Notes under the pieces: model-generated
The model's database searches: none
What the model was told of the DNA's origin: nothing
The model's input: only the letters and a program-made list of their open reading frames with translations
Made by a program: the position numbers and the translations under genes
Part shown: in pieces, positions 13,711 through 63,969 of the stretch
Position numbering within the stretch: position 1 is the first letter of the stretch
Layout: each line of letters starts with the position of its first letter
Virus record (IMG/VR): IMGVR_UViG_3300042542_006078
DNA from: a virus
Lineage: Duplodnaviria > Caudoviricetes
Strand: one strand, 5' to 3'
DNA length: 64,000 bases

Positions 13711-13736
13711 CTTGAAAATCCGTCATTAGATGGCGG
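13711..13736 (+). repeat. Solitary CRISPR-repeat-like hairpin A
   Basis: CTTGAAAAT-CCGTC-ATTAGAT-GGCGG versus repeat CTTAGAAAT-CCGTC-N7-GACGG; 7 nt before ATG 13744. Confidence 0.65.
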
Positions 13737-17497: not shown

Positions 17498-18555
17498 TGC
17501 ACTTTCTTTATTCTTGAAAGGACTTGCTTTTCTAGCATTCTTCTGCGAAAAGCTGGCGGTGTTGGATTGCCACCAGAGCATGCTTTTTTTGCTTGAAAAA
17601 TATCACGCTGACCTGCTAAACCACCATAGCCATAAAAATATCCAAAATATCCACCTGAACAACCACCTTGAGAGCCCATATACATCCAAATAGCGCAATC
17701 TACATCGAAACTACAGTCTGTCGTAAAAGGTAATGTTTGTGCTGGATAAGTATAATCGGCACCAATGCCAAAACTATATGCTGTAAAGCTTGGAATACTT
17801 GTTGGTAAAATGTTATAGTGAAATGCTAAAAAATCACCACCATTTACCGGAATTTCATTATGGCCATAGTAAAATTTTTGGTTGCAATTGGTTTCTGTTT
17901 TGAGTACAACAAAAACAAAAGCTTGTCTACCTGCTCCATCCAGTAAACAATTTTCATCAGGATCAGACGATCTACAATTCCAGCCGCAGTAAGGTATTGT
18001 GGGTTTTCCACACCCTTCTGGCCACGGACCAACACTTGGATCAGTTAAATAACTAGATAAAAATCCAACTTCAGTTAAAGATGCAGGCGGGGCAAAATAC
18101 CCGTACCACCATAAATCTTTACGAGTCCATTCTCCCATTTTTATTTTTACGGTCCCAGAATTAGCTACTACTCCCCCCAAAGAGCAGCAGCATTCCTCAA
18201 AATTAATTTCAACGCTATATATTGATGCTTGATAAAAGCGACAAAAGTAAAAGGGAACGCCGCTAATAAGTGGATTAAAAGGAAAATCATCATTTTCAAG
18301 TGGAGGATTATAATTACTAGTTCCTCCAAGGGCAATTCTACTGAAACATTGATTATTAGCTGGGTTATACGATGGTTCCGTAGGCAAGGTGCAAGGAGTG
18401 CAGCAATTTGTAAATGTATTGTATAAATTGTAATAGTTGCTATAAATATAACTATTGCAAGTTGAATACGGGCAAAAACAACCACCTAGTCCTAAAGTTC
18501 CCGGCTGTAATCCTCCATTGGTAAATGGAGTTCTATAAGGGGGATTACAAGGCAT
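17485..18555 (-). CDS. Cys/Gly/Tyr/Pro-rich protein, possibly a virion component
   Basis: 356 aa, many Cys pairs, SD AAGGA. Confidence 0.65.
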   Translation of the reverse strand: MPCNPPYRTPFTNGGLQPGTLGLGGCFCPYSTCNSYIYSNYYNLYNTFTNCCTPCTLPTEPSYNPANNQCFSRIALGGTSNYNPPLENDDFPFNPLISGVPFYFCRFYQASIYSVEINFEECCCSLGGVVANSGTVKIKMGEWTRKDLWWYGYFAPPASLTEVGFLSSYLTDPSVGPWPEGCGKPTIPYCGWNCRSSDPDENCLLDGAGRQAFVFVVLKTETNCNQKFYYGHNEIPVNGGDFLAFHYNILPTSIPSFTAYSFGIGADYTYPAQTLPFTTDCSFDVDCAIWMYMGSQGGCSGGYFGYFYGYGGLAGQRDIFQAKKACSGGNPTPPAFRRRMLEKQVLSRIKKVHYKP

Positions 18556-18825
18556 TTATTTCCTTTCTTGTCCGAAAAATTCGGTTGGGTATTCGACTTT
18601 TACAATTCCATTTCCATCAACTTTATTTCCATTTTCATCTTCTACCCACCATCTAACTTGATTGACGGGTATATTTAGTTCATCGAGATGGCATTTGTCA
18701 CGGGTGAGGACAGGCATGTGATATTCTTGTCCTTCAATTAAGACTGCAACTTTACATTCTTTTTTTTCATTGTTGTAAAGGAGGCAGTTTCCGCAAATTT
18801 TCTCTATTTCTTTTTTCTTGGCCAT
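18556..18825 (-). CDS. Hypothetical protein with CxxC
   Basis: ICGNCLLY...ECKV...KC. Confidence 0.65.
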   Translation of the reverse strand: MAKKKEIEKICGNCLLYNNEKKECKVAVLIEGQEYHMPVLTRDKCHLDELNIPVNQVRWWVEDENGNKVDGNGIVKVEYPTEFFGQERK

Positions 18826-18865
18826 CGTGTAAACTCCATTTATAATTTATTATAGGGAGAATGCT

Positions 18866-19513
18866 ATGAAAGTTATTGGATGTACATCGCAACTTGCCAT
18901 GGGAAAAGACACTTTTTGTGACTATCTGGCAATAAAACTCAATCAATATGACATAAAGTGGACTAGGGGAGCATTTGCCAATGCTGTCAAAGAAACATTT
19001 TGCAATGCTTTTGGGGTTGACCGTGATTTTATAGAAAAATGGAAAAGAATTCCAGAAAATCCTCCCGGTTTCCTTATGCCAATTCGTCAATGTCTTCAAT
19101 TTATTGGAGATGGATATCGCAAGATTCGTGATGAAATTTGGATTGAAATTGCTTTAAGGGATAATGGTCAAAACCTCATCATTAGTGATGGAAGATATTT
19201 CAATGAAGCCAAGAGAATAAAGGAAAAAGATGGAATTATGTTTTTGATTTATAGGCCGGGTTATTTGAATAATGATCCTAATCCTAGTGAATCGCAGATA
19301 AGACCTTTGTTGGATTGGGCGAAAAATAATTTGAATGAAGGTCCAATTGACCATCAACAAATCCTAATGCATCATCATGTTTCGACACCTTCAGAATTGA
19401 TGTATTTTGATTATTATTTAGTCAATGATGGTTCTATAGAGGATTTTTATGAAAAGATTCAAGAGAAAGTAGTTCCATATATTTTGCAGACTAAAATGTA
19501 TCAAAAAAAATGA
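18866..19513 (+). CDS. Deoxynucleoside monophosphate kinase (T4 gp1-like)
   Basis: SQLAMGKDT P-loop, FANAVK, RQCLQFIGD, IISDGRYFNE. Confidence 0.8.
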   Translation: MKVIGCTSQLAMGKDTFCDYLAIKLNQYDIKWTRGAFANAVKETFCNAFGVDRDFIEKWKRIPENPPGFLMPIRQCLQFIGDGYRKIRDEIWIEIALRDNGQNLIISDGRYFNEAKRIKEKDGIMFLIYRPGYLNNDPNPSESQIRPLLDWAKNNLNEGPIDHQQILMHHHVSTPSELMYFDYYLVNDGSIEDFYEKIQEKVVPYILQTKMYQKK

Positions 19514-27523: not shown

Positions 27524-29599
27524 ATGAACAAGCTGCAAAAAGTGATTTCAAATTTCAATCGTGAACAGTTCAAGGCAATCAATACTGAAATTTCTTTCTC
27601 AGAATATATTGATCTTTGCTATCAAAATCCAAAACTCATCCGTAATTCATGGCAGACCATCTATGACATGATCATGGAAAAGGGAAGTTATCCTGTTGAG
27701 GAATACCGCAAGACATATGTCAATTACAAGTTTTTTGATGATCCAGATTGTCCAATCGTTGGCTTGACCCCGATGAAGGACTCTCTCGTCAAGTTTATCA
27801 AGGGAGCGGCAGGCGGATACGGGACAGAACGCAGAATTCTTCTTCTTCATGGACCTGTTGGCAGTTCAAAGTCAACTATTCTCAGACTTATCAAGAGAAG
27901 TCTTGAGAAATACAGCAAGACTGATGCTGGAGCTTGGTATAGCTTCAAATGGGTGAATCTTCCTACAGGCGCTGATGGGATCTACAACAACCCAGAATGC
28001 GAATGCCCAATGCACGAACAACCTCTTAAGTTGCTCCCCAAGGAAGTTCGTGGACAAATCATTGCAGATATCAACAGGATTCATGAAGAAATCGCAACTC
28101 CACAAGAGAGGAGCGATATTTACACTCTTAAATGCAATGACGAACTTGATCCTCTTTGCAATTTCTTTATGAACGAACTTCTGAAGAGATACGAGGGTGA
28201 CCTTCAAAAAGTTCTTGACAACCATATTAAGGTCGTCAGAAAGGTCCATTCTGAAGCCAATCGTTGTGGAATCGCAACATTCCAGCCCAAAGATGAAAAG
28301 AATCAAGACAGCACAGAGCTAACAGGTGATATTAACTTCCGTAATATCGGAAACTTTGGTTCAGACAGCGATCCAAGATCATTCTCTTTTGATGGAGAAT
28401 TCTGTGCTGGCAACAGAGGAATAATCGAGTTTATTGAAGCACTTAAGCTCGATACTGCATTCCTTTATGACCTTCTTGGTGCATCCCAAGAACAAAGCAT
28501 CAAGCCAAAGAAGTTTGCTCAAGTAAGCATTGACGAGGCAATTTTTTCGCACACAAACGATCCAGAATTTCAGAAGCTCAAGAGCAACCAATATATGGAA
28601 GCTTTCCGTGATCGTACAACCAAGATTGATGTTCCTTACACCCTTAGATGGAACGAAGAGCTAAGGATTCTTGAAAAGGACTATGGTCCCGGTAAAGTTC
28701 GCCAACACATTGCTCCTCACACTCTTGAAATTGCCGCTTTGTGGAGTGTATTGACTCGTCTTGCTGACGATAAAGATGGCAAGATTAGCCTTGTCGAGAA
28801 GGCAGAACTTTATGATGGCAGGCTTCTTGCAGGATGGACTGAAGATTCTGTCAAGGAACTAAAAGACAAGTATCCCGAAGAGGGCATGAGTGGTGGGATT
28901 TCAGTTCGATATCTACAGGACAAGATTTCCAACTGCCTTGCCAACAATCATGACTATGTCAACATGTTCATGGTTCTCAATGAATTGCGTGACGGCCTTG
29001 ACCATTGCAGCTTGCTTACCAATAAGGAGCAAGTTGGCCGTTACATCACTTGTATCGATCTTGCAGTCAAGAAGTTGACTGAAATCTTGAAAGCGGAGGT
29101 TCAGAAGGCTTTGGTCGGCGATAAGGAAGCGATTAAGCGTCTTTGCTCAAACTACATCGATAACCTCATGGCATATATCAACAAGAGCAAGATTAAGGAT
29201 CAGATCACTGGCCAAGACCGCAAGCCAGACGAAAGGCTGATGCGTCAGATTGAGGAAAAGATTCAGATTCCAGATACTGGATGTGATGATTTCCGCCGTC
29301 AGATTGCCGCCTTCATCGGCCATCTTGCTCATGAGGGCAAGAGTTTTCAATGGGATTCCAATCCTAAGCTTCGCAAGGCTCTTGAGGCGAAACTTTTCGA
29401 GGATGTCAAGGACACCATCAAGTTAAGCGCACTCAATATGAGCGGAGCGAGTGTTGTTGACAAAGACTTGCAAGAAAAGATTGATGCAGTCAAGACAAGA
29501 CTCGTTAAAGAGTTTGGATACAACGAGAGAAGTGCAACGGATGTTCTAGAATTTGTTGGCGGAATTTTCTCCCGTGGCGATCTAGCCGAAGACGAGTGA
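27524..29599 (+). CDS. prkA: PrkA/YeaG-family AAA+ ATPase/serine kinase
   Basis: LLHGPVGSSKST, PMHEQPL, PKDEKNQDSTELTG, NRGIIEFIE, EAFRDR. Confidence 0.93.
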   Translation: MNKLQKVISNFNREQFKAINTEISFSEYIDLCYQNPKLIRNSWQTIYDMIMEKGSYPVEEYRKTYVNYKFFDDPDCPIVGLTPMKDSLVKFIKGAAGGYGTERRILLLHGPVGSSKSTILRLIKRSLEKYSKTDAGAWYSFKWVNLPTGADGIYNNPECECPMHEQPLKLLPKEVRGQIIADINRIHEEIATPQERSDIYTLKCNDELDPLCNFFMNELLKRYEGDLQKVLDNHIKVVRKVHSEANRCGIATFQPKDEKNQDSTELTGDINFRNIGNFGSDSDPRSFSFDGEFCAGNRGIIEFIEALKLDTAFLYDLLGASQEQSIKPKKFAQVSIDEAIFSHTNDPEFQKLKSNQYMEAFRDRTTKIDVPYTLRWNEELRILEKDYGPGKVRQHIAPHTLEIAALWSVLTRLADDKDGKISLVEKAELYDGRLLAGWTEDSVKELKDKYPEEGMSGGISVRYLQDKISNCLANNHDYVNMFMVLNELRDGLDHCSLLTNKEQVGRYITCIDLAVKKLTEILKAEVQKALVGDKEAIKRLCSNYIDNLMAYINKSKIKDQITGQDRKPDERLMRQIEEKIQIPDTGCDDFRRQIAAFIGHLAHEGKSFQWDSNPKLRKALEAKLFEDVKDTIKLSALNMSGASVVDKDLQEKIDAVKTRLVKEFGYNERSATDVLEFVGGIFSRGDLAEDE

Positions 29600-29646
29600 T
29601 GATTGAATTAACTTTATAAAAAGGTGACGATCAGTAAGGAGGATTC

Positions 29647-29868
29647 ATGACCATTCAGAACCATTGGTTACAGTCTGCTCAAGTCAAGCAACTCATGAAA
29701 GAAATTGATGAGATTGCTATGGATATTTGGTCACAAGATGGAACTCTTGGCGATCTGTTTTCTGCCTTGAATGACGATCATACTGATCTTCTTTTCTCGA
29801 TGAAGATCAAGGACTTTGCAAGCGATCCAAATGACATGTCATGCGGTATCGAGCTTGTTTCTCCTTAA
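29647..29868 (+). CDS. Hypothetical protein inserted in the prkA operon
   Basis: 73 aa, SD AAGGAGG. Confidence 0.65.
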   Translation: MTIQNHWLQSAQVKQLMKEIDEIAMDIWSQDGTLGDLFSALNDDHTDLLFSMKIKDFASDPNDMSCGIELVSP

Positions 29869-29874
29869 CCAGAA

Positions 29875-29897
29875 AGGAATCCGTCACAAGATGACGG
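29875..29897 (+). repeat. Solitary CRISPR-repeat-like hairpin B
   Basis: AGGAAT-CCGTC-ACAAGAT-GACGG, perfect stem with 7-nt loop, 7 nt before ATG 29905. Confidence 0.7.
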
Positions 29898-29904
29898 TTA
29901 AGCT

Positions 29905-31122
29905 ATGCCTCGTCGCATTCATGAAGATTGGCAGCATTTCCGTGATGTAATTTCAGGGCGAATCAGAAAAGCCCTGAAAAAATTCATCAAGAGCGGACAG
30001 ATCGTCAAAAATCGTGGAAAAAATGGCAAGATTTCCATTAACATCCCGAAAATTGACATTCCTCATATTGTTTATGGAAATAGTGGCGAGGGAGTTGGAA
30101 GAGGGGATGGTAAAGAAGGAGATGTCATAGGCAAAGATCCGCAAAATGGCAAGGGAAAAGGCAATGGAGCAGGTCAAGGAGAGGCTGAAGGAATCACAAT
30201 CAATCTTGATTTGGAAGATGTCCTGAGGTTTATGCAGGACGAACTTCAACTCCCAAATCTAAAGAAAAAGCCAAATGAAATTTACGATGAAATTAAAATC
30301 AAGTATAACAATATCAGTCTGATAGGACCAGAATCTCTTAGGCACAATAGAAGAACTCTCATGCAGACCTTGAAGCGTCAGGCTGCTGAGGGAACTCTTG
30401 AAAAACTAAATCATGTTGCTGGAATTAAAGACCCAGTCAGAGTTCTACAGCCAATCAATGAAGATAAGAGATACAGACAATTTAACGAAATTAAAATACC
30501 AAGCAGTAATGCTTTGATTGTCTTTGCCCGTGACGGATCTGGTTCCATGGATCAGGCCAAGTGTGAAATCGTCAGTGATATGGCTTGGTGGATCGATGTT
30601 TGGATTCGTCGTTTCTATGATCGTGTTGATCGCCTCTATGTTTGGCATGATAGTGAGGCCATGGAGGTTGATGAAAATAAATTTTATAAATATCGATTCG
30701 GAGGAGGAACAAATTGCTCCTCTGCTCTTAAATTTATTTCCAAGCAATTTGAGAACAGATATCCTCCAGAAAAGTGGAACATTTATGTTTTCTACTTTAC
30801 AGATGGCGACAACTGGGGAGAAGACAATCAGATTTTCATTGATACTCTTGCCAATGATTTTAAGCCTAATGTAGTCAATTTTACGGGTATCACACAGATT
30901 CTCGCATCATCCTATTCTGATTCAATCAAGCATCATGTTGATGAAGCGATTAAACAAGGCAAGCTTGACAAGGATTGCGTCAGGACTGTTGCAATAGGTG
31001 GTAGTCCAGATGGAAGGTCTTTGTGGACAGCGCCAAGTTTGAGCGATGATAATAGGAATGAGCAAATCATGGAAGCAATTCAACAACTTCTAGGAAACCC
31101 AAGTAAACTATCAAGGGAATGA
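29905..31122 (+). CDS. yeaH: YeaH/YhbH (DUF444) vWA-domain protein
   Basis: MIDAS DGSGS, GGGTNCSSAL, YFTDGDN; DKRYR motif. Confidence 0.9.
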   Translation: MPRRIHEDWQHFRDVISGRIRKALKKFIKSGQIVKNRGKNGKISINIPKIDIPHIVYGNSGEGVGRGDGKEGDVIGKDPQNGKGKGNGAGQGEAEGITINLDLEDVLRFMQDELQLPNLKKKPNEIYDEIKIKYNNISLIGPESLRHNRRTLMQTLKRQAAEGTLEKLNHVAGIKDPVRVLQPINEDKRYRQFNEIKIPSSNALIVFARDGSGSMDQAKCEIVSDMAWWIDVWIRRFYDRVDRLYVWHDSEAMEVDENKFYKYRFGGGTNCSSALKFISKQFENRYPPEKWNIYVFYFTDGDNWGEDNQIFIDTLANDFKPNVVNFTGITQILASSYSDSIKHHVDEAIKQGKLDKDCVRTVAIGGSPDGRSLWTAPSLSDDNRNEQIMEAIQQLLGNPSKLSRE

Positions 31123-31123
31123 T

Positions 31124-32719
31124 ATGAGCAGTAAATTTTTTCATGGTTCTAGCCTGCTTATGGGTGACAATACCGTTCCCGGTGTTCAACTTTCAAAAGA
31201 ACTTAAAGAATACATACCCAAAATTCTTCAAGCATGTCGTGATTGGGGCCTTGATTTCTATCCCACAGTTGTCCAGTTGTTGACATATGACGAAATTAGC
31301 GAAGTTGCCGCTTATGGTGGTTTCCCTGTCCGTTTTCCACATTGGTCATTTGGGATGGAGTACGAAGAGCTACAGCGTGGATATGAATTCGGTGGACACA
31401 AGATATACGAAATGGTTGTCAATTGTAATCCATGTTACATTTATAATCTTGCTTCAAACACTCTTGCTGACCATCTGACTGTTGTTGCACATGCGACAGG
31501 ACACAATGACTTTTTCAAGAACAATATTCATTTCAGCGCAACTGACACGAATATGATGAATAAAATGGCGAATCATTCTGCTAGGATTCGCAATTATATG
31601 AGCAGATGGGGCAAAGAAAGAGTAACTGAATTCCTTGATCATGTTATGCGTTTAGAAACACTTATTGATGGTTCAGATGCTTGGACAGATAGGGTTATAA
31701 AAGATAGGAATATTCGTGATGAAAGAAAGTACAATAAGCCTCAATTATTGAATGTTGATAAGCAAAGGCTTTACATGGAGCCTTTCATCAATACTACTGC
31801 ATTTCGTAAGAAGCAGAATGAAGATGTTCATGAGAGAGACATAGCAGACGAAATTGGCTTATTCAAGGAACCAACTAAGAACATTTTGGGATTTATTCGT
31901 GATAATGCTCCATTAAAGCCTTGGCAAGCCGATATTGTCTCTATGCTTTATGAGGAGGCGATTTATTTCTTCCCTCAAAGACAAACTAAGGTTGGGAACG
32001 AAGGATGGGCCTCCTTAACGGACTCTGTAATCATGGCAGAGCAGGGATTCATAAGCCTTGGTCAAAAGTCTGATGATTGCGGCATTGTTGAATACGCTGA
32101 TCATAAAATGGGTGTTCTTGGTGGGAAATACAGTATGAATCCTTACAAGTTGGGATTCTACTTATTTTCTGATATTCGTGAGCGTTGGGACAAGGGAAGA
32201 TTTGGGCAAGAGTACGAAGAATGCACGGACATGCACAAGAAAGAGAATTGGGATACAGGTGCTATGCTCGGCAAGGAAAAAATCTTTGAAGTCAGGAAGT
32301 ATTATGATGACCTGACTATGATCCATGAATTCTTTACAGAAGAGTTTTGCCGAAAACAGGAATATTTCCATTGGAAACATTATCCAAACGGAGAATACAG
32401 GCTTGAATCCCGTGATTATCAAAAGATCAAGAAGGGTTTGATGCAGAGGCATGTTAATGGTGGACTTCCAGACATTAGACTCATGGAGCCAAATTACGGT
32501 GGTCGTGGAATCATGATGCTTCAACATTTTTCTGACGGAAGGCCTCTTCACGATCCTTACATTGGTGATGTTTTAAGTTCAATCCGTTTTATTTGGAATA
32601 ATGATGTTATTCTTTCAACAAACTCCGATGATGGTAAGGAAAGGGTTTATTGGCAAAGAGCCAATTACCTTGATATCACGGATAGGTCTAAATTCGACAA
32701 ATCTTTGAATAATTTCTGA
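31124..32719 (+). CDS. spoVR: SpoVR/YcgB-family protein
   Basis: GGFPVRFPHWSFG, KIYEMVVN, VVAHATGHNDFFKNN, NEGWAS, NPYKLG. Confidence 0.93.
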   Translation: MSSKFFHGSSLLMGDNTVPGVQLSKELKEYIPKILQACRDWGLDFYPTVVQLLTYDEISEVAAYGGFPVRFPHWSFGMEYEELQRGYEFGGHKIYEMVVNCNPCYIYNLASNTLADHLTVVAHATGHNDFFKNNIHFSATDTNMMNKMANHSARIRNYMSRWGKERVTEFLDHVMRLETLIDGSDAWTDRVIKDRNIRDERKYNKPQLLNVDKQRLYMEPFINTTAFRKKQNEDVHERDIADEIGLFKEPTKNILGFIRDNAPLKPWQADIVSMLYEEAIYFFPQRQTKVGNEGWASLTDSVIMAEQGFISLGQKSDDCGIVEYADHKMGVLGGKYSMNPYKLGFYLFSDIRERWDKGRFGQEYEECTDMHKKENWDTGAMLGKEKIFEVRKYYDDLTMIHEFFTEEFCRKQEYFHWKHYPNGEYRLESRDYQKIKKGLMQRHVNGGLPDIRLMEPNYGGRGIMMLQHFSDGRPLHDPYIGDVLSSIRFIWNNDVILSTNSDDGKERVYWQRANYLDITDRSKFDKSLNNF

Positions 32720-33321: not shown

Positions 33322-36300
33322 ATGATGTCTGATAATATTATTCTGCCTTACAACTCTAAACTTGCCCCCGATGAGCGTAAGCAAAGGCTTCTGAACGACA
33401 CATTCAATTGGTTTGATATGTGTAACGAAGTTTTTTTTGACTTCGTGAAGAATCTGTATGGCGGAGTGAAGCATGAACATTTGATTCTTGTGAATTTTGC
33501 CGAGAAACCCAAGAAGGTTAGCAATAGTAAAAAGCCTAAGAAAAAAGATCAGGAAGTCAACATTCATGTTGAGCCCAATCAAGCCGAATGGGTTGACAAT
33601 GCTTGTGCCACATTCTGGTTTCGATTGCAGGCAAAATCAACAGTACAATTAGACCAATCAGTCCAGACAGCAGAAGAGCGTATTCGACGATTTCGGGATT
33701 ATGCTGGTCACGAGCCATCATCATTTGCCAAATCTTATCTAAATGGTAATTATGATCCAGAGAAGACTGAATGGGTTGATTGCAGGCTTCTTTATGTCAA
33801 TTTTTGCCGTAATCTGAATGTCAACCTTGATGCGGACATTCGCACAATGGTCGAACACAATCTTCTTCCTGTTCTCCCCGGTCAGGATTTCAAAACCAAC
33901 AATGTATTCTCCAACATTTTTGGAGTAGGCAATAAGGAAGACAAGGGTCAAAAAACGAACTGGCTTAACACGGTCGCAGAAGGCCTTCAGTCCAAGGAAA
34001 TTTGGAATTGGGATGAGTATCGTGATTTGATATCAAGATCTACTGGATGCTCTACGGCAGCAGAACTGAGGTCTGAGTCGATTGGCAGGCCAAGCATGCT
34101 TGCAGTTGATTTTGCATCTGAGAAATCAGGCCAAATATCACAGGAATGGCTTGCAGAAAGGGTTAAGTCTTTTAGGGCAGCAGCTTCTCAAAAAAGCAAA
34201 ATCTATGACATGCCTAATCGTCTTGTTTTGAAGGAATACATTGCTTCAAAAATCGGGCCTTTCAAACTTGAAAGGTGGTCTGCTGCTGCCGTTTCTGCTT
34301 ATAAGGATGTCCGCAGCAAGAATAGTATCAATTTGCTTTATTCCAAGGAAAGATTGTGGCGATGCAAGGAAATTGCTCAGATTTTGGTTGATAATCCGCA
34401 GGTTGCTGAAGCCCAACAGATTCTTGTTAATTATTCTTCTGGTGATACCAATTCATTCACAGTTGAAAATCGTCACATGGGCGATTTGACTGTTCTTTTC
34501 AAGATTTGGGAAAAGATGGATATGGATTCTGGCATAGAACAGTATTCCGAAATTTATCGTGATGAATATAGTCGTGATCCAATTACAGAGTTGCTACGCT
34601 ATCTCTACAATCATAGGCATATTTCGGCAAAAACTTTTAGGGCTGCTGCAAGGTTGAATTCTCTTTCGCTGAAGAATGATCGTAAGAAAATTCACCCGAC
34701 TATCAGTGGTAGGACTAGCGTTTCTTTCGGCCATTCAACAATCAAGGGATGCATTACTCCTCCCGATCATATTGTCAAAAATCGAAAAGAGAATGCTGGA
34801 AGCACTGGCATGATCTGGGTTACAATGCAGCTTATCGATAATGGTCGATGGGCGGATCATCATATTCCTTTCCACAATTCTCGCTACTATCGTGATTTTT
34901 ATGCTTATCGTGCCGATCTACCGACTATTTCTGATCCTCGTCGTAAATCTTTTGGACATAGGATCGGCAATAATATTAGCGATACAAGGATGATTAATCA
35001 TGATTGCAAAAAAGCATCAAAAATGTATCTTCGCACAATCCAGAATATGACGCACAATGTGGCATTCGACCAGCAGACTCAGTTCGCTGTTCGTCGTTAT
35101 GCTGATAATAATTTCACGATTACGATCCAAGCTAGGGTTGTAGGGAGGAAATATAAAAAGGAAATATCAGTTGGTGATCGTGTGATGGGTGTTGACCAGA
35201 ATCAGACCACAAGTAACACATATTCTGTTTGGGAAGTAGTTGCTGAAGGGACTGAAAATTCTTACCCATATAAGGGCAATAATTATCGTCTCGTTGAGGA
35301 TGGATTTATTCGCAGCGAATGCAGTGGTCGAGATCAGCTTTCCTATGATGGTCTTGATTTTCAGGACTTTGCTCAATGGCGCAGGGAAAGATACGCATTT
35401 TTATCTTCTGTTGGATGTATTCTCAATGACGAAATCGAGCCTCAAATCCCTGTTAGTGCCGAAAAGGCAAAAAAGAAGAAGAATTTTTCTAAGTGGCGTG
35501 GTTGTTCTCTTTATAGTTGGAACCTCTGTTATGCATATTATCTTAAGGATTTGATGCATGAGAACTTGGCAAATAATCCTGCTGGATTCCGACAGGAAAT
35601 TCTGAATTTTATTCAGGGTTCTAGGGGCGTGAGGCTTTGTTCCCTTAATCACACTAGCTTCCGACTTCTCTCTAAAGCCAAGTCTCTAATTCATTCATTT
35701 TTTGGTCTAAACAATATCAAAGATCCTGAATCTCAAAGGGATTTTGATCCAGAAATTTATGACATAATGGTCAATCTGACACAAAGGAAGACCAACAAGA
35801 GGAAGGAAAAAGCTAATCGCATCACTTCTTCAATTTTGCAAATTGCCAATAGGCTGAATGTCAGTCGTATTGTGATTGAGAACGATTTGCCGAATGCAAG
35901 TTCCAAAAACAAGGCATCAGCCAATCAAAGGGCAACTGATTGGTGTGCTAGAAATGTATCTGAGAAATTAGAATATGCCTGCAAGATGCTTGGTATCAGC
36001 TTATGGCAGATTGATCCAAGGGACACATCGCACCTTGATCCATTTGTTGTGGGCAAGGAGGCTAGATTTATGAAAATAAAGGTTTCTGATATTAACGAAT
36101 ACACTATCAGTAATTTCAAAAAGTGGCATGCAAACATTGCTACAACAAGTACTACAGCACCTCTTTATCATGATGCTTTGAAGGCATTTTCTTCTCATTA
36201 TGGAATTGATTGGGACAATTTGCCAGAAATGAAGTTTTGGGAATTGAAGAATGCCTTGAAAGACCATAAAGAGGTGTTTATCCCAAATCGTGGTGGTCGC

Positions 36301-36423
36301 TGCTATTTATCGACATTGCCGGTGACTTCTACATCTGAAAAGATTGTTTTCAATGGAAGAGAGAGATGGTTGAACGCAAGTGATATTGTGGCAGGAGTTA
36401 ACATTGTGCTAAGATCAGTATGA
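33322..36423 (+). CDS. cas12i: Type V-I CRISPR effector Cas12i
   Basis: 1033 aa adjacent to the array; RuvC-I RVMGVDQNQ, RuvC-II IVIENDLP, RuvC-III ASDIVAGVNI; DQLSYDG and RGGRCYLST motifs; repeat 3' end has Cas12i2-type architecture (from memory). Confidence 0.93.
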   Translation: MMSDNIILPYNSKLAPDERKQRLLNDTFNWFDMCNEVFFDFVKNLYGGVKHEHLILVNFAEKPKKVSNSKKPKKKDQEVNIHVEPNQAEWVDNACATFWFRLQAKSTVQLDQSVQTAEERIRRFRDYAGHEPSSFAKSYLNGNYDPEKTEWVDCRLLYVNFCRNLNVNLDADIRTMVEHNLLPVLPGQDFKTNNVFSNIFGVGNKEDKGQKTNWLNTVAEGLQSKEIWNWDEYRDLISRSTGCSTAAELRSESIGRPSMLAVDFASEKSGQISQEWLAERVKSFRAAASQKSKIYDMPNRLVLKEYIASKIGPFKLERWSAAAVSAYKDVRSKNSINLLYSKERLWRCKEIAQILVDNPQVAEAQQILVNYSSGDTNSFTVENRHMGDLTVLFKIWEKMDMDSGIEQYSEIYRDEYSRDPITELLRYLYNHRHISAKTFRAAARLNSLSLKNDRKKIHPTISGRTSVSFGHSTIKGCITPPDHIVKNRKENAGSTGMIWVTMQLIDNGRWADHHIPFHNSRYYRDFYAYRADLPTISDPRRKSFGHRIGNNISDTRMINHDCKKASKMYLRTIQNMTHNVAFDQQTQFAVRRYADNNFTITIQARVVGRKYKKEISVGDRVMGVDQNQTTSNTYSVWEVVAEGTENSYPYKGNNYRLVEDGFIRSECSGRDQLSYDGLDFQDFAQWRRERYAFLSSVGCILNDEIEPQIPVSAEKAKKKKNFSKWRGCSLYSWNLCYAYYLKDLMHENLANNPAGFRQEILNFIQGSRGVRLCSLNHTSFRLLSKAKSLIHSFFGLNNIKDPESQRDFDPEIYDIMVNLTQRKTNKRKEKANRITSSILQIANRLNVSRIVIENDLPNASSKNKASANQRATDWCARNVSEKLEYACKMLGISLWQIDPRDTSHLDPFVVGKEARFMKIKVSDINEYTISNFKKWHANIATTSTTAPLYHDALKAFSSHYGIDWDNLPEMKFWELKNALKDHKEVFIPNRGGRCYLSTLPVTSTSEKIVFNGRERWLNASDIVAGVNIVLRSV

Positions 36424-36601: not shown

Positions 36602-37293
36602 CTCTCAATGCCTTAGAAATCCGTCCAAAGTTGACGGGGCAGAATTGCTGTGAGTATCCAAAATGGATTTGAGGCTCGCAATGCCTTAGAAATCCGTCCT
36701 TGGTTGACGGTGTCCTTCAGAGCGAGCAAAGTTTCCCAAGAAATACTCTCAATGCCTTAGAAATCCGTCCAAAGTTGACGGCGTGATTCCCTTGTGCAGA
36801 TTGGGCGGCACGGGCACTCTCAATGCCTTAGAAATCCGTCCAAAGTTGACGGCTGATCTCCATTTCTGATTGACGGGCATCAGCGGCACTCGCAATGCCT
36901 TAGAAATCCGTCCAAAGTTGACGGGACAGCGGACCTAAAGCGATGGCGAAAAACTTACAAACTCGCAATGCCTTAGAAATCCGTCCAAAGTTGACGGTCG
37001 TAATAGAGGGGGACTGTTGCCCCGTCCTCAATTGCTCGCAATGCCTTAGAAATCCGTCCTTGGCTGACGGGAAACTGGTTGATATGCTATCGATTCGAGT
37101 GTATTTCTCGCAATGCCTTAGAAATCCGTCCAAAGTTGACGGGTTAGGTGTCATCCCGATCCATCCTACAGGTTGGAGACCTCTCAATGCCTAAGAAATC
37201 CGTCCATAGTTGACGGACGGTACTCTGATAAGGACTGCCAGAACCCAACCGATAGTACTCTCAATGCCTAAGAAATCCGTTCAAAGTTGACGG
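36602..37293 (+). CRISPR. CRISPR array: 10 repeats of 36 nt, 9 spacers of 35-41 nt
   Basis: Consensus CTC(T/G)CAATGCCTTAGAAATCCGTCCAAAGTTGACGG; repeats start at 36602, 36675, 36746, 36817, 36889, 36962, 37035, 37107, 37181, 37258. Confidence 0.99.
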
Positions 37294-38101: not shown

Positions 38102-38137
38102 AGTAAAGCCGTCATCTAGGTGACGGCTTTACTTTTT
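38102..38137 (+). terminator. Intrinsic terminator
   Basis: AGTAAAGCCGTCA-TCTAGG-TGACGGCTTTACT followed by T tract. Confidence 0.8.
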
Positions 38138-42607: not shown

Positions 42608-42636
42608 TGAATACCGTCATCTTATGATGGGTTTAT
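42608..42636. repeat. Degenerate repeat-like hairpin C
   Basis: Plus strand TGAATA-CCGTC-ATCTTAT-GATGG; minus strand ATAAAC-CCATC-ATAAGAT-GACGG, 22 nt before ATG 42591. Confidence 0.45.
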
Positions 42637-49208: not shown

Positions 49209-49752
49209 AACTATTCTGGTAGACATTTGTTATTCTCCTTCTGCTGGTAATTTTGCCAGAACTCATAAAATAATTGGCGAGCGCCACAAGATTGGCAATT
49301 GGTTCTATTGTCGTGATATATTTCATAATATTTTGTGGAATTTGAAATTATTTTTTTTCACCACCAATATTGGCAGGGTTTCAGCAGTTATCAAGTTCAT
49401 GGAAATAATTGAAGAAAAGTTGGATGTTCAGCCTAGATCGCAGTTTGGCCCCACACAAATGAAGAAAGTAATGTGGATTAAGCCAAGTTCTTGGTGGACT
49501 TCCTTGGGAATGAGAAGATCGTTATTCACAATTTTGTTGAGGGCTGGTTTGAAATATGTGCCATCAAAAGACAATTTTGATGAAGCCATTCAACTTGAAA
49601 AGTATTTGTCTAAAACGCCATATGCATTTCAAAGATTTATGATGGGATATACGAAGTATGCTGGTCGTAAAAGAGGATGGTATAGGCAATTTTACGATTT
49701 GAAATTAAGCGACGAACAAATAGATAAACTTCTTGTAAAACCTGAGAAATAG
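49153..49752 (+). CDS. Hypothetical protein
   Basis: 199-aa ORF; likely start 49180. Confidence 0.6.
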   Translation: MTRLEWRNPMETKNKNCRETILVDICYSPSAGNFARTHKIIGERHKIGNWFYCRDIFHNILWNLKLFFFTTNIGRVSAVIKFMEIIEEKLDVQPRSQFGPTQMKKVMWIKPSSWWTSLGMRRSLFTILLRAGLKYVPSKDNFDEAIQLEKYLSKTPYAFQRFMMGYTKYAGRKRGWYRQFYDLKLSDEQIDKLLVKPEK

Positions 49753-56977: not shown

Positions 56978-56997
56978 AGCAATCCGTCACAAGATGG
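56978..56997 (+). repeat. Degenerate repeat-like hairpin D
   Basis: AATCCGTCACAAGATG is identical to site B, then G; equals B minus GAC; 16 nt before ATG 57014. Confidence 0.45.
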
Positions 56998-57815: not shown

Positions 57816-58046
57816 ATGGCACTTATATCATTCAAAGACTGGCGTAATAAATTTGACGAGGCTAGTCCCACAACTCGTTTGAGGGATGAGATCATGAGGG
57901 GCAATCACCCCATGTCAGCCGGTGTTGCGATGTCAAGATCAACTCCACATCCTGAATTTGTTAAGAAGGCAATTAAGGAATTTGGCACACCAGATCATCC
58001 TAAGAAAAAACGAAAAAGTAAGCGCAAAAAGAAAAAAGGTCAATAA
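57816..58046 (+). CDS. Candidate virion internal protein
   Basis: MALISFKDWR..FDEA; TAAATA 4 nt before ATG. Confidence 0.6.
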   Translation: MALISFKDWRNKFDEASPTTRLRDEIMRGNHPMSAGVAMSRSTPHPEFVKKAIKEFGTPDHPKKKRKSKRKKKKGQ

Positions 58047-58456
58047 TGCTGTCTTTTCACGAATGGAGAGCAAAAAGGCTTGATGAAGCTGCCAAAAAAG
58101 GTAAGCCAAAAAAGGCTCCTGTGGCAAGGCATGACATTGAAACATGGCTTAAGGAAATAGAAAGTCTTAAGAAAGACCTAGAAGAACTTAAAAAAGCCAA
58201 GAAAATAGCCGCTCAAAAACTCGCTAGACTGGCAGATATTGAAAAGCTTGATTCTAAGAAACCCGATTCTAAGAAACCCGATTCTAAGAAACCCGATTCT
58301 AAGAAACCCGATTCTAAGAAACCTGATTCTAAGAAACCTGATTCTAAGAAACCTGATTCTAAGAAACCTCTTAAAAAATATGTTTCTAAGAAGATTAAGA
58401 AAAAAGGCGACACAAGATTAAAAAATCCGTCAGAAATTGACAAAGAGAAAAAATGA
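58046..58456 (+). CDS. Lys-rich candidate virion internal protein with DSKKP repeats
   Basis: MLSFHEWR..LDEA. Confidence 0.7.
   Translation: MLSFHEWRAKRLDEAAKKGKPKKAPVARHDIETWLKEIESLKKDLEELKKAKKIAAQKLARLADIEKLDSKKPDSKKPDSKKPDSKKPDSKKPDSKKPDSKKPDSKKPLKKYVSKKIKKKGDTRLKNPSEIDKEKK
58250..58369 (+). repeat. 15-bp tandem repeat x8 (DSKKP)
   Basis: GATTCTAAGAAACCC x4 then GATTCTAAGAAACCT x4. Confidence 0.95.
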
Positions 58457-58497: not shown

Positions 58498-59007
58498 TTG
58501 TTAGAAAGAAGATACTCTCTAAGAGCGAAAATAAGGGGCTATCTTATGTCAGAAGAATCTAGAATATCATCACAAGAAGATATAATTAACGATGTTGAAA
58601 AACAGAGTTTGAAAAATGCTCGGGAAGTTCATGGTAGTATTTCCATAATTCAAGCAGAACAAGAAACATATGTGATTGCAGTCGCAATTTGCTTAGATAA
58701 AAGCAAGAATTTTATCAATAAAATTAATTGCAAGCGTGGAGTACCCATTCAGGGTTATGTCTACGATGCCCAATCAGACAGTTACTTTTTAGAATGTAGT
58801 GATTTCTTGCATATTGGAATTATACCTGCATCATTTGTTGCAACATTCAAAAACTATAGTGGCTGGAAAATGTTTGTCCCAATGCCAGAAAGTGTAATTA
58901 AAAGGCACCTGAATGATTCTCAAAAGAAAGATTTGAAACAATTTAAGAATCATTTCAAGGCTGATGAATTCATTATAAATTTTATTCAAATGGTAAATCC
59001 AAATTAA
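58498..59007 (+). CDS. Hypothetical protein
   Basis: 169-aa ORF. Confidence 0.6.
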   Translation: MLERRYSLRAKIRGYLMSEESRISSQEDIINDVEKQSLKNAREVHGSISIIQAEQETYVIAVAICLDKSKNFINKINCKRGVPIQGYVYDAQSDSYFLECSDFLHIGIIPASFVATFKNYSGWKMFVPMPESVIKRHLNDSQKKDLKQFKNHFKADEFIINFIQMVNPN

Positions 59008-59485: not shown

Positions 59486-60310
59486 ATGGCATGTACATCT
59501 ACTGGTATTGGTTGTGGCTCCTCTTCTGTGCAAACTTGTCCTGATGAGTATGGTTGCATAAGCGGCAAATGCCCTGATTTTACAATAAGAAGACATGATA
59601 CCAAGCCTTTTTTCAAGGTGAAGGTCGAGGATTGTGACGGACCTCTTGATCTAACTGACTTGGTTTTAGAAGCAACTATGTGGGCCAAGGGCAAGCTTAA
59701 GGTTGCATTGGATCAGGATGATACTGTTTTGGCTTTCGCCGATAATATTGGTTTTAACCAAGTAATGCAGGGTGATGTGCTGATTATGGATCAGGCTAGG
59801 TTGCCGGAAAAAATGTTGGTCACAGGATTTGATGAAGTAAATCGCTTAGTTCATGTTCAAAGAGGTTATCACGGAACTCCAGTTCAAAACTGGAAGCGTG
59901 GAAATTCTGTTAAAATTATCAAGTTTACAAATGCTTCTTCTTCGACAGAAATGGTTTATCAAGATGTGATCAACATAGATGGAACTACTACAGAAAATGT
60001 TCTGACAGAAAGCTTTCTTGTTTATGAGTGGCACTCAGAGGATACATGTTTGCCGGGCTGCTACTATCTTGAGTTTAAGCTCATGAAAATGTTGGTTTTG
60101 GGAATAAACATGCAAACAACTGTTCCTAGCAATCAAATTCCAAGCAATCTCCTTCCTGATGGTGTTGTTCCAAGTTTCACAGACCCTTCTTTCACACCAA
60201 GTACATTTTCTTGTAGTATGGGAACTGGAATTGATTGGATAAGAAGATTCCCAGTTGATAAAGAAGGATTTTACATAAAAATCGTTGACACTATTACAAT
60301 TAATGATTGA
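59486..60310 (+). CDS. Probable virion structural protein (baseplate/tail, BppU-N-like)
   Basis: RRHDTKPFFKVKVEDCDGPLDLT; TAAATA 5 nt before ATG. Confidence 0.5.
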   Translation: MACTSTGIGCGSSSVQTCPDEYGCISGKCPDFTIRRHDTKPFFKVKVEDCDGPLDLTDLVLEATMWAKGKLKVALDQDDTVLAFADNIGFNQVMQGDVLIMDQARLPEKMLVTGFDEVNRLVHVQRGYHGTPVQNWKRGNSVKIIKFTNASSSTEMVYQDVINIDGTTTENVLTESFLVYEWHSEDTCLPGCYYLEFKLMKMLVLGINMQTTVPSNQIPSNLLPDGVVPSFTDPSFTPSTFSCSMGTGIDWIRRFPVDKEGFYIKIVDTITIND

Positions 60311-60335
60311 CATGAGAATTTTGTGGTGTTACATT
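60307..60335 (+). promoter_or_regulatory. Strong sigma70 promoter of infC
   Basis: TTGACA, 17 nt, TGn-TACATT. Confidence 0.75.
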
Positions 60336-60354
60336 TTTTTGGGGTCTATCTTTA

Positions 60355-60380
60355 CTTAGAAATCCGTCAATATTAGACGG
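60355..60380 (+). repeat. Solitary CRISPR-repeat-like hairpin E
   Basis: CTTAGAAATCCGTC (14-nt exact match to the repeat)-AATATTA-GACGG, 3 nt before ATG 60384. Confidence 0.8.
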
Positions 60381-60383
60381 GAA

Positions 60384-60944
60384 ATGAATATGAATCAAAA
60401 CAAGTTTACAAACGCAAATAATCGTCGTGAAGATCAAAACAGAGTGAACTGGCAGATAAGAGTGCCACAAGTTCGTGTTGTTCGTGACGAAGAACAACTC
60501 GGAATAATGCCGACTGATCAAGCACGAAAATTAGCAATGGACGAAGGTTTGGATTTGGTGGAAATAGCTCCAACAGCCAAGCCTCCAGTTTGCAGAATTA
60601 TGGATTATGGTCGCTTCAAATATGAACAGAATATCAAGAAGAAGGAAGCTTCTAAAAAACAGCGTGAGTCGCAAGTTCAACTTAAGGAAATAAGGCTTCG
60701 CCCTGCAATTCAGGAACATGATATTGAAACAAAATTGAATCAAGCGAAAAAGTTTTTGGAAGAAAAATGTAAGGTTCAGTTCAATTTAATTTTCAAGGGA
60801 TTCCGTGAGATGAACAATAAAGAGCAAGGCCACACGGTCATGCGGAAGATTGTTGAGCAAATTCAACAAGTAGCGATCATAGAGAAGTCACCTTCTATGG
60901 AAGGCAATAGAATAATATGCATAGTGTCACCGAAGGTTTCTTGA
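60384..60944 (+). CDS. infC: Translation initiation factor IF-3
   Basis: VRVVRDEEQLGIM, GLDLVEIAP, PPVCRIMDYGRFKYE, KEIRLRP, PSMEG. Confidence 0.95.
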   Translation: MNMNQNKFTNANNRREDQNRVNWQIRVPQVRVVRDEEQLGIMPTDQARKLAMDEGLDLVEIAPTAKPPVCRIMDYGRFKYEQNIKKKEASKKQRESQVQLKEIRLRPAIQEHDIETKLNQAKKFLEEKCKVQFNLIFKGFREMNNKEQGHTVMRKIVEQIQQVAIIEKSPSMEGNRIICIVSPKVS

Positions 60945-60959
60945 ATAAGGAATTAATTG

Positions 60960-60982
60960 TAATGTCCGTCATTTGTGGGCGG
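60960..60982 (+). repeat. Solitary repeat-like hairpin F
   Basis: TAATGT-CCGTC-ATTTGTG-GGCGG directly before ATG 60984/60996. Confidence 0.5.
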
Positions 60983-62198
60983 AATGGACAATCATATGAG
61001 TAATGATATTTTGTCAGAAAAGATAAACGACCTTCAGAATGAGTTCATTCGTCGTCTCCATGTCCATGGAAACGCTTCTTCGTCTAATCCTCCTCTTCTT
61101 CTGAGGTTGATACACGATTCTAGTCAAGATCTTCTTGAGTATGCATTTGGTCAATTTGGAACCAATCTTCTCCAATTGACAAAAGTTCTGGATATGAGCC
61201 ATCCAGACTTGGCTACTATTTTTGATGGTAATTTTTCAGACAATCAAAATTTCGCCAAAAAATGCATGCAATTTTTGGCCATGGCAGAATACGCTAAAAA
61301 CAATCAATTAAACGAGATATTTCCTTGGATTGGCAGCTTGTTTGTCAAAGAGTCTCTCGATAAAACCGTAATTAAAAAAATAGACAATGCAAATTACAAT
61401 AAGTCTTATGTTAGATTGATATTGGACTCTGAGGAAAGAGAAGCAATTAGATTTTGCAAGAAAATGCAAATTATTGATTTGCAAAATTTTTATAAGAAGA
61501 GTGATGAATTATGGAATGCACAAACTGACAACTTCAAACAATTCATCAGGTATGATTCTGCTTATATGCGTGAGTTAAAACAAGCAGAAAAGAAAATGAA
61601 AAGGTATCAGGAGTTAGGATGTCATAGTCTTGCTTCAGAGATAGCCAAGAGCATTGGAGTTTTCCGTGAAAACATGGAACAAACATATTATGGTTTCAAC
61701 AGAATCACAATGACCAATGCCGCAATTATTCTCGCAAAGTGTTTGGGTTACACATATAGCCCAGCATACCAGCTACATGCTGGTGGACATATTATGAGGA
61801 TGGATGCACAAATTAAGGTTCCAAGGATTTTCTTCAAAAATTATTTTTTTGATCATTCCTTGGACTTGAATACCGTTTATGATTATGAGCCAAAGGTTTA
61901 TCCTTTTCATGAAGTTGTTGACATTGCGCCAGAACAAGTAATGCAAACAATTAAGTTGTTGGAGAGTTTTCCAGAGGCAAACGACAAGCCTATTTTTGAT
62001 CATTTTGGGGTTATTGTTCCATCAATATCTTACAAAAATCATATTTTCAAAAACGAATCAGGTTTGTTGCAGGATTGTGGTTCTCAAGAAGAGTGTTCTA
62101 AAGAACTAGATAAAGTTTTCATTAAAAACAAGTATATTTATCCTATCATAATTGGAGAAAAAGACGGAAAGTGTTTCTTCATATGTTATTGGGCTTGA
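60975..62198 (+). CDS. Hypothetical protein
   Basis: 407-aa ORF; likely start 60984 or 60996. Confidence 0.75.
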   Translation: MGGMDNHMSNDILSEKINDLQNEFIRRLHVHGNASSSNPPLLLRLIHDSSQDLLEYAFGQFGTNLLQLTKVLDMSHPDLATIFDGNFSDNQNFAKKCMQFLAMAEYAKNNQLNEIFPWIGSLFVKESLDKTVIKKIDNANYNKSYVRLILDSEEREAIRFCKKMQIIDLQNFYKKSDELWNAQTDNFKQFIRYDSAYMRELKQAEKKMKRYQELGCHSLASEIAKSIGVFRENMEQTYYGFNRITMTNAAIILAKCLGYTYSPAYQLHAGGHIMRMDAQIKVPRIFFKNYFFDHSLDLNTVYDYEPKVYPFHEVVDIAPEQVMQTIKLLESFPEANDKPIFDHFGVIVPSISYKNHIFKNESGLLQDCGSQEECSKELDKVFIKNKYIYPIIIGEKDGKCFFICYWA

Positions 62199-62901: not shown

Positions 62902-63969
62902 ATGAAAGACCCATATTCTGTTCTTGGCGTTGCAAAAAATGCCACTAAAGAAGAGATCGTAAAGGCTTATCGGAAAGGCGCTCAGACACATCATCCAGAT
63001 CGCAATCCCGGCGATAGTGAAGCTGAGGCCCGATTTAGGGAAATTCAAGAAGCATATGACATTCTAAGCGATGATTCTAAGAGATCCCAATATGATAGCA
63101 ACGGATTCTCCATGCACTTCCGAAATAGGGGAAGCGAAGGTAACCCCTTCGGCCCCGATTTCGGGGATGTAATGAATGAAATATTTGGCAAGAGTACATT
63201 CCGTGGCAGGAATATGACTGTCAGGTTAGAAATCGATCTTGAAGAAGCCTATAGCGGCTGTACCAAAGAGATTTCCCTGAAGCTTAAAAATACCTGCAAT
63301 ACTTGCAAGGGTTTGGGTCAATTAAGTAGTGAAGTTTGCGGTTCATGCCAAGGACAGGGATTCACGAAGGTTAACAATGCGCCATTTGAATTTAGAACAA
63401 ATTGCCCAGTTTGTAATGGACTTGGTAAGATAAATCCAATTCCATGTGATGATTGCAATGCCAATGGATTTCTGGCTGGACACAAAGAAAAGAAAATCCA
63501 GATACAAATACCTTGCGGCATAGATGATGCGATGAATCTCAAGTTGGTTGGAGAAGGAGAAGAGTCTGTTCGTGGAGGAAGGCCGGGAGATCTTATTGTT
63601 CATGTCCTTGTTCGTGAACATGCTATTTTTACCAGAGATGGAATCGATCTTTTAATTGATGTGCCAATGACTTATTCACAGCTTGTATTCGGTTGTGATA
63701 TTGATGTGGTAACTATCGGAAAAGAAGTTGTAACTGTTAAGATTCCAGAAGGAACTCAAAGTCACGCCAAGTTCAAAATACGAGGCAAGGGTATGATTAT
63801 GCCGAATGGAGTTTACGGTGATCTTTTCATTACTGTGAAAATAGAAATTCCCAAGAATATTTCTCTTGATTATAAAGAAAATATCAAAAAATTGATGCCT
63901 TTTGAAATGAATAACTTGGGATTCAAGAGAGAACAATGGCTCAAAAATGTAAATAAAAACAGTAAATAA
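62902..63969 (+). CDS. dnaJ: DnaJ chaperone (type I)
   Basis: J-domain HPD; G/F region; four CxxCxGxG-type repeats; PGDL. Confidence 0.95.
   Translation: MKDPYSVLGVAKNATKEEIVKAYRKGAQTHHPDRNPGDSEAEARFREIQEAYDILSDDSKRSQYDSNGFSMHFRNRGSEGNPFGPDFGDVMNEIFGKSTFRGRNMTVRLEIDLEEAYSGCTKEISLKLKNTCNTCKGLGQLSSEVCGSCQGQGFTKVNNAPFEFRTNCPVCNGLGKINPIPCDDCNANGFLAGHKEKKIQIQIPCGIDDAMNLKLVGEGEESVRGGRPGDLIVHVLVREHAIFTRDGIDLLIDVPMTYSQLVFGCDIDVVTIGKEVVTVKIPEGTQSHAKFKIRGKGMIMPNGVYGDLFITVKIEIPKNISLDYKENIKKLMPFEMNNLGFKREQWLKNVNKNSK

Follow-up and report, generated by a model that had tools for sequence, protein, structure and literature searches.

A solitary Cas12i repeat handle in the infC leader of a huge lake phage, a candidate operator acting in cis

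The stretch of DNA analysed here, 64,000 nucleotides (nt) of a Caudoviricetes genome recorded as IMGVR_UViG_3300042542_006078 in IMG/VR and called the window below, stems from an uncultured huge lake phage; it is contained in 20 public runs, and the 16 studies concerned are of lake and other freshwater metagenomes. The phage encodes a Cas12i effector with a CRISPR array and, outside the cas locus and 24 kb downstream of cas12i, a handle-like element ahead of infC, the gene for translation initiation factor 3 (IF3). By its sequence this element (60355-60380, + strand) is a solitary repeat unit that forms part of an mRNA leader, in a phage that also encodes the cognate effector, and the comparison with related phages indicates that, in one species-level lineage, the CRISPR-repeat-derived handle has taken the place of the start-proximal portion of the predicted infC mRNA leader. 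We tentatively read the element as a cis-acting site at which Cas12i would bind and cleave the infC mRNA and thereby control its translation, a reading to which we give somewhat less than an even chance of being correct.

The handle ahead of infC

The effector gene (33322-36423, + strand) codes for a Cas12i2-like protein of 1033 amino acids (aa) that matches PDB 6LTP with E 1e-96 and in which, according to the alignment columns, the equivalents of the processing residues K18 and H485/H486 and of the RuvC Asp/Glu/Asp triad are retained. The array (36602-37293, + strand) has 10 repeats of 36 nt, which end in CTTAGAAATCCGTC-C-AAA-G-TT-GACGG, and spacers of 35-41 nt. By eye, the nine array spacers seem markedly GC-richer than the phage (37% GC), and the last 'spacer' is AT-rich flank. 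Local BLAST of the spacers against the phage and the compared relatives gave no match, nor did exact scans of the IMG/VR viral contigs with one spacer and of the GTDB genome contigs with one.

The 14-mer CTTAGAAATCCGTC occurs exactly in eight copies in the array and once more in the infC leader, at 60355-60368, and nowhere else in the window. If up to two mismatches are allowed, 12 matches are found as compared to 0.35 expected from shuffles, and for AATCCGTC-N5-9-GACGG the shuffle expectation is 0.00. For a covariance model, 11 repeats were taken from the arrays of this phage and of two other Cas12i loci, with no solitary element among them. With this model the infC element scores 30.6 bits (E ~1e-5), the array repeats 40-46 bits and the next solitary match 15 bits, which makes the infC element the only significant match outside the array in the window. 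An initial annotation had proposed a near-perfect Cas12i handle ahead of the IF3 gene, and the match is indeed far beyond chance.

The properties of the repeat that matter to Cas12i2 have been described. Its mature form has 23 nt, from A(-23) to G(-1), with a 5' tail of 6 nt, a stem of 6 bp, a bulge of 2 nt and a loop of 3 nt; the precursor CRISPR RNA (pre-crRNA) is cut between U(-24) and A(-23), and mutation of A(-23) abolishes cleavage, while mutation of G(-22) or A(-21) lowers it (PMC7567891). Processing needs His485, His486 and Lys18, the stem bases G(-15) and U(-14) are read by Lys537, the bulge bases are contacted by the protein, and the mature CRISPR RNA (crRNA) carries a spacer of 31 nt (PMC7567891). 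In the target-bound complex, Cas12i2 makes contact with guide bases 1-19.

The infC element reads T/AGAAAT-CCGTC-A-ATA-T-TA-GACGG (the slash marking the cut site), with every base of the tail and stem kept. T60357, A60358, G60359 and A60360 correspond to U(-24)/A(-23), G(-22) and A(-21), on which processing depends, and the equivalents of G(-15) and U(-14) are present as well. The identity with the repeat runs from 3 nt 5' of the cut site to the last repeat base, and the element is made up of the equivalent of the 23-nt mature handle (60358-60380) and of the 3 nt (CTT) that precede the known Cas12i2 cut site, while the leader lacks the 10 nt at the 5' end of the 36-nt repeat that are trimmed from the mature crRNA. 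Thirteen of the 16 invariant columns of the natural-repeat alignment A2 are kept, the differences being C15 and G19 to A and T, and T21 to A. The sixth stem pair is thus A:T, as compared to C:G in the arrays, a compensatory change, and the geometry of 6-bp stem (CCGTC/GACGG with the sixth pair), 3-nt loop and 2-nt bulge (TA) is retained; the loop ATA is also present in natural repeats. The hairpin is the predicted minimum free energy fold of the leader. An Rfam search of the leader and the array gave chance-level matches only.

The position of the handle is defined by a sigma-70-type promoter on one side and by the start codons on the other. The promoter (60307-60335, + strand) consists of TTGACA at 60307-60312, a 17-nt spacer with TGT at its end and TACATT at 60330-60335; with 10 of 12 matches and a TG ahead of the -10 element it is the top-ranked promoter-like site of the region, and its -35 element overlaps the stop codon of the upstream gene. 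From its position, a transcript start at about 60342 is predicted, practically the place (near 60341) that the initial annotation had given. The 14-nt repeat match is followed by the 7-nt loop AATATTA (60369-60375) and GACGG (60376-60380), and then by GAA, an ATG at 60384, AAT and a second in-frame ATG at 60390, all as annotated, so the handle ends 3 nt ahead of the infC ATG. The open reading frame (ORF) at 60384-60944 (+ strand) codes for 186 aa and was confirmed to be IF3 by both Pfam domains (IF3_N 4.5e-30, IF3_C 5.1e-28). There is no terminator between the handle and the coding sequence, with which it is continuous. The initial annotation had also pointed to the lack of a clear Shine-Dalgarno (SD) sequence outside the hairpin. 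The sole SD-like stretch in the leader is indeed a GGGA that straddles the 3' arm, but the argument is a weak one because a canonical SD core precedes only about a third of the crude gene calls of this phage. Contigs from two RNA runs (metatranscriptomes) cover 58515-58681, 59502-59796 and 61366-61640, and the infC leader lies outside this coverage.

From this arrangement we infer binding, cleavage and repression of the infC leader by Cas12i, in the following manner. The infC mRNA would begin near 60342, and the phage's own Cas12i would recognise the handle at 60358-60380 like a pre-crRNA. It would cut between U60357 and A60358 and remain bound, by which a 5' piece of 16 nt (60342-60357, + strand, predicted on the basis of the promoter and of where Cas12i2 cuts) would be removed. 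The next ~20 nt would take the position of the spacer, with the ATGs at guide positions 4-6 and 10-12, within the part of the crRNA that is held by Cas12i2. Bound Cas12i would block the 30S subunit, and the more free Cas12i there is, the less IF3 would be made.

The effect could be repression, but it could also be maturation or stabilisation. In the latter case Cas12i would still act in cis; the 16-nt 5' piece would be cut off, the bound protein or the 5'-OH hairpin end would protect the mRNA, and the effect would be positive or on timing only. The sequence evidence for such a role is the same as that for repression, and two related hairpins of this phage, at 29872 and 60966, sit between cistrons, where cleavage would separate transcripts. 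The start codon, however, is 3 nt from the stem, and a protein of 120 kDa bound at -4 to -26 should leave no room for the 30S subunit, as would be anticipated from the ribosome footprint. We consider a maturation or stabilising role improbable.

Another use of the same RNA would be that of an mRNA-borne guide, in which the handle and the first 20-30 nt of infC steer Cas12i to a DNA target with a TTN protospacer adjacent motif (PAM) in the phage, in a competitor or in the host. There are natural precedents in crRNA-like regulators and in non-canonical guides that derive from mRNAs (10.1101/2023.03.03.530964; 10.1101/2023.03.10.532045; 10.1101/2024.12.27.630466), and the 'protospacer' at the own locus has CGG in place of a PAM, so that self-cleavage would be avoided. 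However, for none of eight such 'guides' was a PAM-flanked match longer than 11 nt found in 131 kb of phage sequence (the window and its extension in a near-identical assembly). With the PAM and 15 nt of the infC guide as query, 53 matches were obtained in IMG/VR, all of which end at 15-20 nt; by a rough estimate this is about the number that chance would yield for a word so rich in AT. At the homologous site of relatives, the 'PAM' is TAA and guide positions 1 and 3 are mismatched, and an overlap with the start codon would not be needed for a guide. A guide function is thus very improbable, and control of infC translation by bound Cas12i is the reading that is followed below.

Handle-like hairpins at other translation starts

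The infC handle is a single copy without regular spacer-repeat spacing, and the next similar hairpin is 602 nt away, past infC. Judged from sequence it stands out as the best preserved among dispersed, otherwise weaker handle-like hairpins at translation starts of the same phage; about ten of the weaker ones are located ahead of other start codons, that of csrA included. The family was scanned in the window and in the near-identical assembly G002, which adds a 67-kb extension (131 kb together). This gave eight strict solitary CCGTC-N7-GRCGG hairpins, at 13720, 29881, 60364 and 60966 of the window and at 40769, 41743, 72253 (- strand) and 78386 (- strand) of G002. All eight are in sense orientation and at most 30 nt upstream of a start codon, a placement that has a P of 5e-11 against random positions (single P = 0.052) and of 3e-4 against intergenic positions (single P = 0.37). 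Family members other than the infC handle have the beginning of the start codon 1-28 nt past their stem, a distance shorter than the 31-nt spacer of the mature Cas12i2 crRNA.

The hairpin past infC, CCGTC-ATTTGTG-GGCGG (60966-60982, + strand), is a weaker one with a U.G wobble and lies directly 5' of the next gene (ATG 60984 or 60996). All four GGCGG variants pair on the mRNA-sense strand only, which favours an element that acts at the RNA level; a palindromic DNA operator of the type CCGTCA-N5-TGACGG was ranked low for this reason. Two further members of the window are located 7 nt 5' of a start codon. The first, CTTGAAAATCCGTC-ATTAGAT-GGCGG (13711-13736, + strand), precedes ATG 13744 of a 155-aa ORF and with 11.8 bits in the covariance model is not significant alone. 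The second, AATCCGTC-ACAAGAT-GACGG (29872-29897, + strand; 15 bits, E 0.08), precedes ATG 29905 of a DUF444/YeaH gene. Compared with the collinear phage G004, in which a short ordinary spacer takes this place, it constitutes an insertion. A truncated copy, AATCCGTC-ACAA-GATGG, is found at 56981-56997 (+ strand), 16 nt 5' of ATG 57014. The 16-mer AATCCGTCACAAGATG is shared by these two leaders (29875-29890 and 56981-56996), which suggests that handle-like leader modules have been copied between genes. In a divergent intergenic region, the hairpin at 42614-42630 reads CCATC-ATAAGAT-GACGG on the - strand, 22 nt 5' of ATG 42591, with full stem pairing only on the + strand.

Beyond the window, 38 kb past its end, the same phage has a csrA homologue (L032:10376-10630, - strand; Pfam 6e-15), the leader of which carries CTTAGAAAACCGT-catat-ACGG (L032:10654-10675, - strand; 17.7 bits) 28 nt 5' of the ATG. 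This is a second element with the CTT/AGA context of the cut site. A sigma-70-like factor with Pfam region 2 and region 4 (L032:17320-18234, + strand) is preceded by the relaxed hairpin AAAT-CTGTC-ATAAAAT-GACGG (L032:17276-17292), 27 nt upstream, in which the U.G wobble is valid on the sense strand, and a relaxed member, TAGAAATTCGTCA, stands ahead of an ORF without assigned function. The sequence at 38109-38126 was considered as a family member and rejected, since its extended stem and the T-run that follows identify it as a terminator.

Handles and leaders in related phages

Outside the window, the infC handle is present only in assemblies of the same species, namely G002 (99.7% identical), L121 and L122. 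The leaders of more distant relatives, with IF3 proteins that are 74-78% identical, were compared in L004-L009 (IMG/VR), in G010 and G011, and in L123 (metagenomes), and in every infC leader examined outside the same-species lineage the handle is absent. Conservation of the element in phages that lack Cas12i, which the initial annotation had named as an argument against its regulatory idea, was thus not observed. Gene order is kept in these relatives, and so is a promoter TTGACW-17-TAnnTT at the same place, which again overlaps the upstream stop codon; the ATGAATATGAAT start is kept in the closer ones, L003-L009, and in L123. The handle-free leaders have GAGGTG (L004 and L009), GGAG (G010) or a G-rich run (L005-L008 and L123). 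The first part of the leader, GGGTCT.T..TTTA, is common to the window and to G010, from which it would follow that the handle has replaced the start-proximal part. The stretch replaced is the one that carries the SD sequence in L004, L009 and G010, and the stem, with its end 3 nt ahead of the ATG, has come in its place. By this comparison the infC handle is a recent, species-level replacement. In one strain, position 60342 carries A in place of G and 1 nt is lost at 60341, with no variant inside the handle, but the strain differences (about 12 in 4 kb) are too few to speak on selection.

Relatives of Cas12i were searched for in viral contigs, which gave none with a single-protein query and three with an alignment as query. 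In lineage B, the phages G010 (168 kb) and G011 (225 kb) encode a Cas12i of 42% identity and have an array of 12 repeats; the 84-kb fragment G003 contains no Cas12i and was placed with this lineage by its handle type. In this set, 6-7 solitary handles were found with scores of 19-26 bits, and their loops (xTCCGTT) resemble those of the lineage's own arrays. Five are located 11-30 nt 5' of start codons (G011 40665, G010 123602, G010 106118, G003 50802 and the tandem G011 49369/49401), while the one at G003 44964 is 58 nt 5' of a start codon and that at G010 145202 is without a downstream ORF. None of them is at a gene orthologous to those with copies in the window, and the lack of orthologous positions between lineages points to a fast turnover of handles. 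The tandem in G011 (49369-49417; L045:1501-1549, - strand) consists of two hairpins that are 15 nt apart and 30 nt 5' of a 120-aa ORF, and looks like a degenerate mini-array inside a leader. Two other handle candidates were discarded, CCGTCCAGAAATGACGG in G003, G008, G009, G010 and G011 because it is inside conserved coding sequence, and GAAATCCGTC at G010 32107 because it is inside a collagen-like coding repeat.

Two further relatives are informative with respect to Cas12i. In G005 (340 kb, IF3 70% identical), where no Cas12i was detectable, handle-like hairpins are not enriched, as indicated by one stem hairpin against three for a control pattern. The phage G004 (IMGVR_UViG_3300047481_002095; a contig of 58 kb), which is collinear with the window, encodes a Cas12i homologue at 16393-19395 (L012:1501-4503) that is 39-42% identical, flanked by genes that are 80-90% identical, and without an adjacent array. 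In this protein the Asp of RuvC motif I is replaced by Asn and the Glu of motif II by Thr, whereas the Lys and His-His residues for processing are kept, and it may be nuclease-dead. The G004 contig gives no match to the covariance model with E <= 1.

It is conceivable, although we find it rather doubtful, that in huge phages bearing Cas12i the CRISPR nuclease has more generally been co-opted as a sequence-specific RNA-binding regulator, with fast-evolving handle operators on the phages' own mRNAs (for IF3, CsrA, possibly a sigma factor and others). Another possible role is that of a sponge, in which the infC handle and its weaker relatives titrate either the phage's own Cas12i, limiting nuclease activity or autoimmunity, or the Cas12i of co-infecting relatives; what is controlled would then be Cas12i, and not infC. 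The mature handle is almost the same in all Cas12i relatives with fully readable arrays, which range from 42 to 100% identity, and a decoy would for that reason act across lineages. The layout of a promoter followed by one repeat copy, here some 16 nt after the predicted start, is that of the solitary repeat units (SRUs) of viral genomes and of RNA anti-CRISPRs (Racrs), and V-A Racrs inhibit Cas12a (PMC10651486). Racrs, however, mimic the repeats of a host, are small non-coding RNAs, are usually unlinked to cas genes and inhibit immunity (PMC10651486). In the present phage, the handle is in an mRNA leader, continuous with a coding sequence and without its own terminator, the phage itself has the cognate Cas12i and array, several copies are located at start codons, and the neighbourhood showed nothing acr-like. 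A decoy would also have no need of so consistent a placement, 1-30 nt ahead of start codons. A sponge is thus unlikely in our view, even though by sequence it is inseparable from repression or stabilisation.

A number of observations weigh against control of infC by Cas12i. In the handle itself, the second bulge base is A, and it is U in all natural repeats examined (the 11 aligned repeats, the Cas12i2 repeat and those of lineage B). Most other members of the family lack A(-23), G(-22) and A(-21), have bulge-less stems of 6-7 bp (CCGTCA..TGRCGG) and score at noise level, and these weaker members may not be Cas12i sites. Being young and limited to one species-level lineage, the infC handle shows no signal of purifying selection, and no argument for function can be taken from conservation. 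The initial annotation had suggested a coupling of the CRISPR effector to IF3. Its sequence-level predictions all hold, since the handle, the processing bases, the effector residues and the start-codon position are as expected, but the coupling is not general, because two Cas12i-bearing relatives, the array-bearing lineage B and G004 with its RuvC-mutant Cas12i, have no handle at infC. G004 is in fact without any handle-like hairpin in 58 kb, in spite of its Cas12i homologue. Finally, the turnover of Cas12i is single, so that titration effects could dominate over the regulation of any one mRNA.

The youth of the element, the poor state of most family members, the copying between leaders suggested by the shared 16 nt and the lack of hairpins in the G004 contig would all fit a hairpin that acts without Cas12i or does nothing. 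It could be repeat debris, a copied leader module, a simple hairpin or the site of another factor, and its likeness to the repeat would then reflect origin. The thermodynamic z-scores of the hairpin (-0.3 to -1.7) are unremarkable, as this explanation would have it, but they are uninformative for a 5-bp stem. What such a hairpin does not account for is that only the part of the repeat held by Cas12i is retained, with the compensatory change in the sixth pair, and that the family has an invariant stem and variable loops, which fits the base-specific reading of the stem by Cas12i2 (PMC7567891). Moreover, handles are found repeatedly at start regions of two lineages with Cas12i, and there is no enrichment in the relative without detected Cas12i. 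We regard a Cas12i-independent hairpin as less likely than regulation by Cas12i, but as the alternative to be taken most seriously.

Relation to known systems and genomic surroundings

The RegA protein of phage T4 and the coat protein of MS2 are dedicated repressors that bind to translational operators on mRNA. The infC handle resembles such operators in being a protein-binding RNA motif at or beside the ribosome-binding region, with the qualification that here the binding is predicted only. With the crRNA repeat of Cas12i2 it has the 23-nt architecture and the U/AGA cut context in common, and the phage also encodes the cognate effector. It differs from that repeat by being solitary, at 24 kb from the array and followed by a start codon and coding sequence, and by its bulge A for U and its sixth pair A:U (PMC7567891).

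Repeat-derived RNAs that have been co-opted for regulation through a Cas effector are known as CreR, CreA, crlRNA, mini-arrays and scaRNA/tracr-L (10.1101/2023.03.03.530964; 10.1101/2023.03.10.532045; 10.1101/2024.12.27.630466; 10.1101/2024.10.29.618823). These RNAs act in trans on DNA promoters through partial, PAM-flanked spacer matches and are mostly found in or beside cas loci, whereas for the infC handle no target was found in the 131 kb of phage sequence and IMG/VR, and it is proposed to act in cis, on RNA and at a translation start. Engineered systems come closer in this respect. Two reports describe CARTRIDGE, in which Cas-binding motifs placed in 5' untranslated regions (UTRs) modulate translation in mammalian cells (PMC10115826), and a synthetic use of Cas12a processing for mRNA degradation in yeast (PMC9943656). 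A literature search, in a library that is incomplete, brought up no natural Cas12 handle or operator acting in cis on a phage's own mRNAs.

If the proposed role is correct, a CRISPR effector would naturally serve a further purpose, that of regulating the virus's own genes after transcription, in cis and on RNA. This would set it apart from crRNA-like regulators, which direct Cas proteins to DNA promoters, and from RNA anti-CRISPRs, which are decoys against host immunity. Phage-borne CRISPR would be linked to translation control through IF3 and CsrA, and the expression of translation and transcription factors would be tied to the pool of free Cas12i, which would be a natural counterpart of the engineered switches with Cas proteins in the 5' UTR. 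This would help to explain why huge phages retain compact Cas12 systems without adaptation genes, and it would provide a natural minimal Cas12i operator that can be copied at the bench. The infC leader is a clean test case, with its predicted promoter, intact handle and absence of a competing SD sequence, and with the ordinary leaders of close relatives as controls.

Some neighbouring genes are of interest as well. Directly upstream of cas12i, at 27524-32719, a 691-aa ORF, DUF444/YeaH and SpoVR follow each other in a row, which is unusual phage cargo; the 691-aa ORF is possibly PrkA. In G004, about 1.1 kb interrupts the SpoVR match, which suggests an insertion. At 58250-58368, a perfect 15-nt tandem repeat of 7.9 copies is coding, as (KPDSK)n, in a lysine-rich ORF of 136 aa (58046-58456). 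Close to infC, at 62902-63969, the phage encodes a full-length DnaJ with J domain, zinc-finger and C-terminal domains, and together with IF3 and CsrA this forms a cluster of host-like genes for proteostasis and translation.

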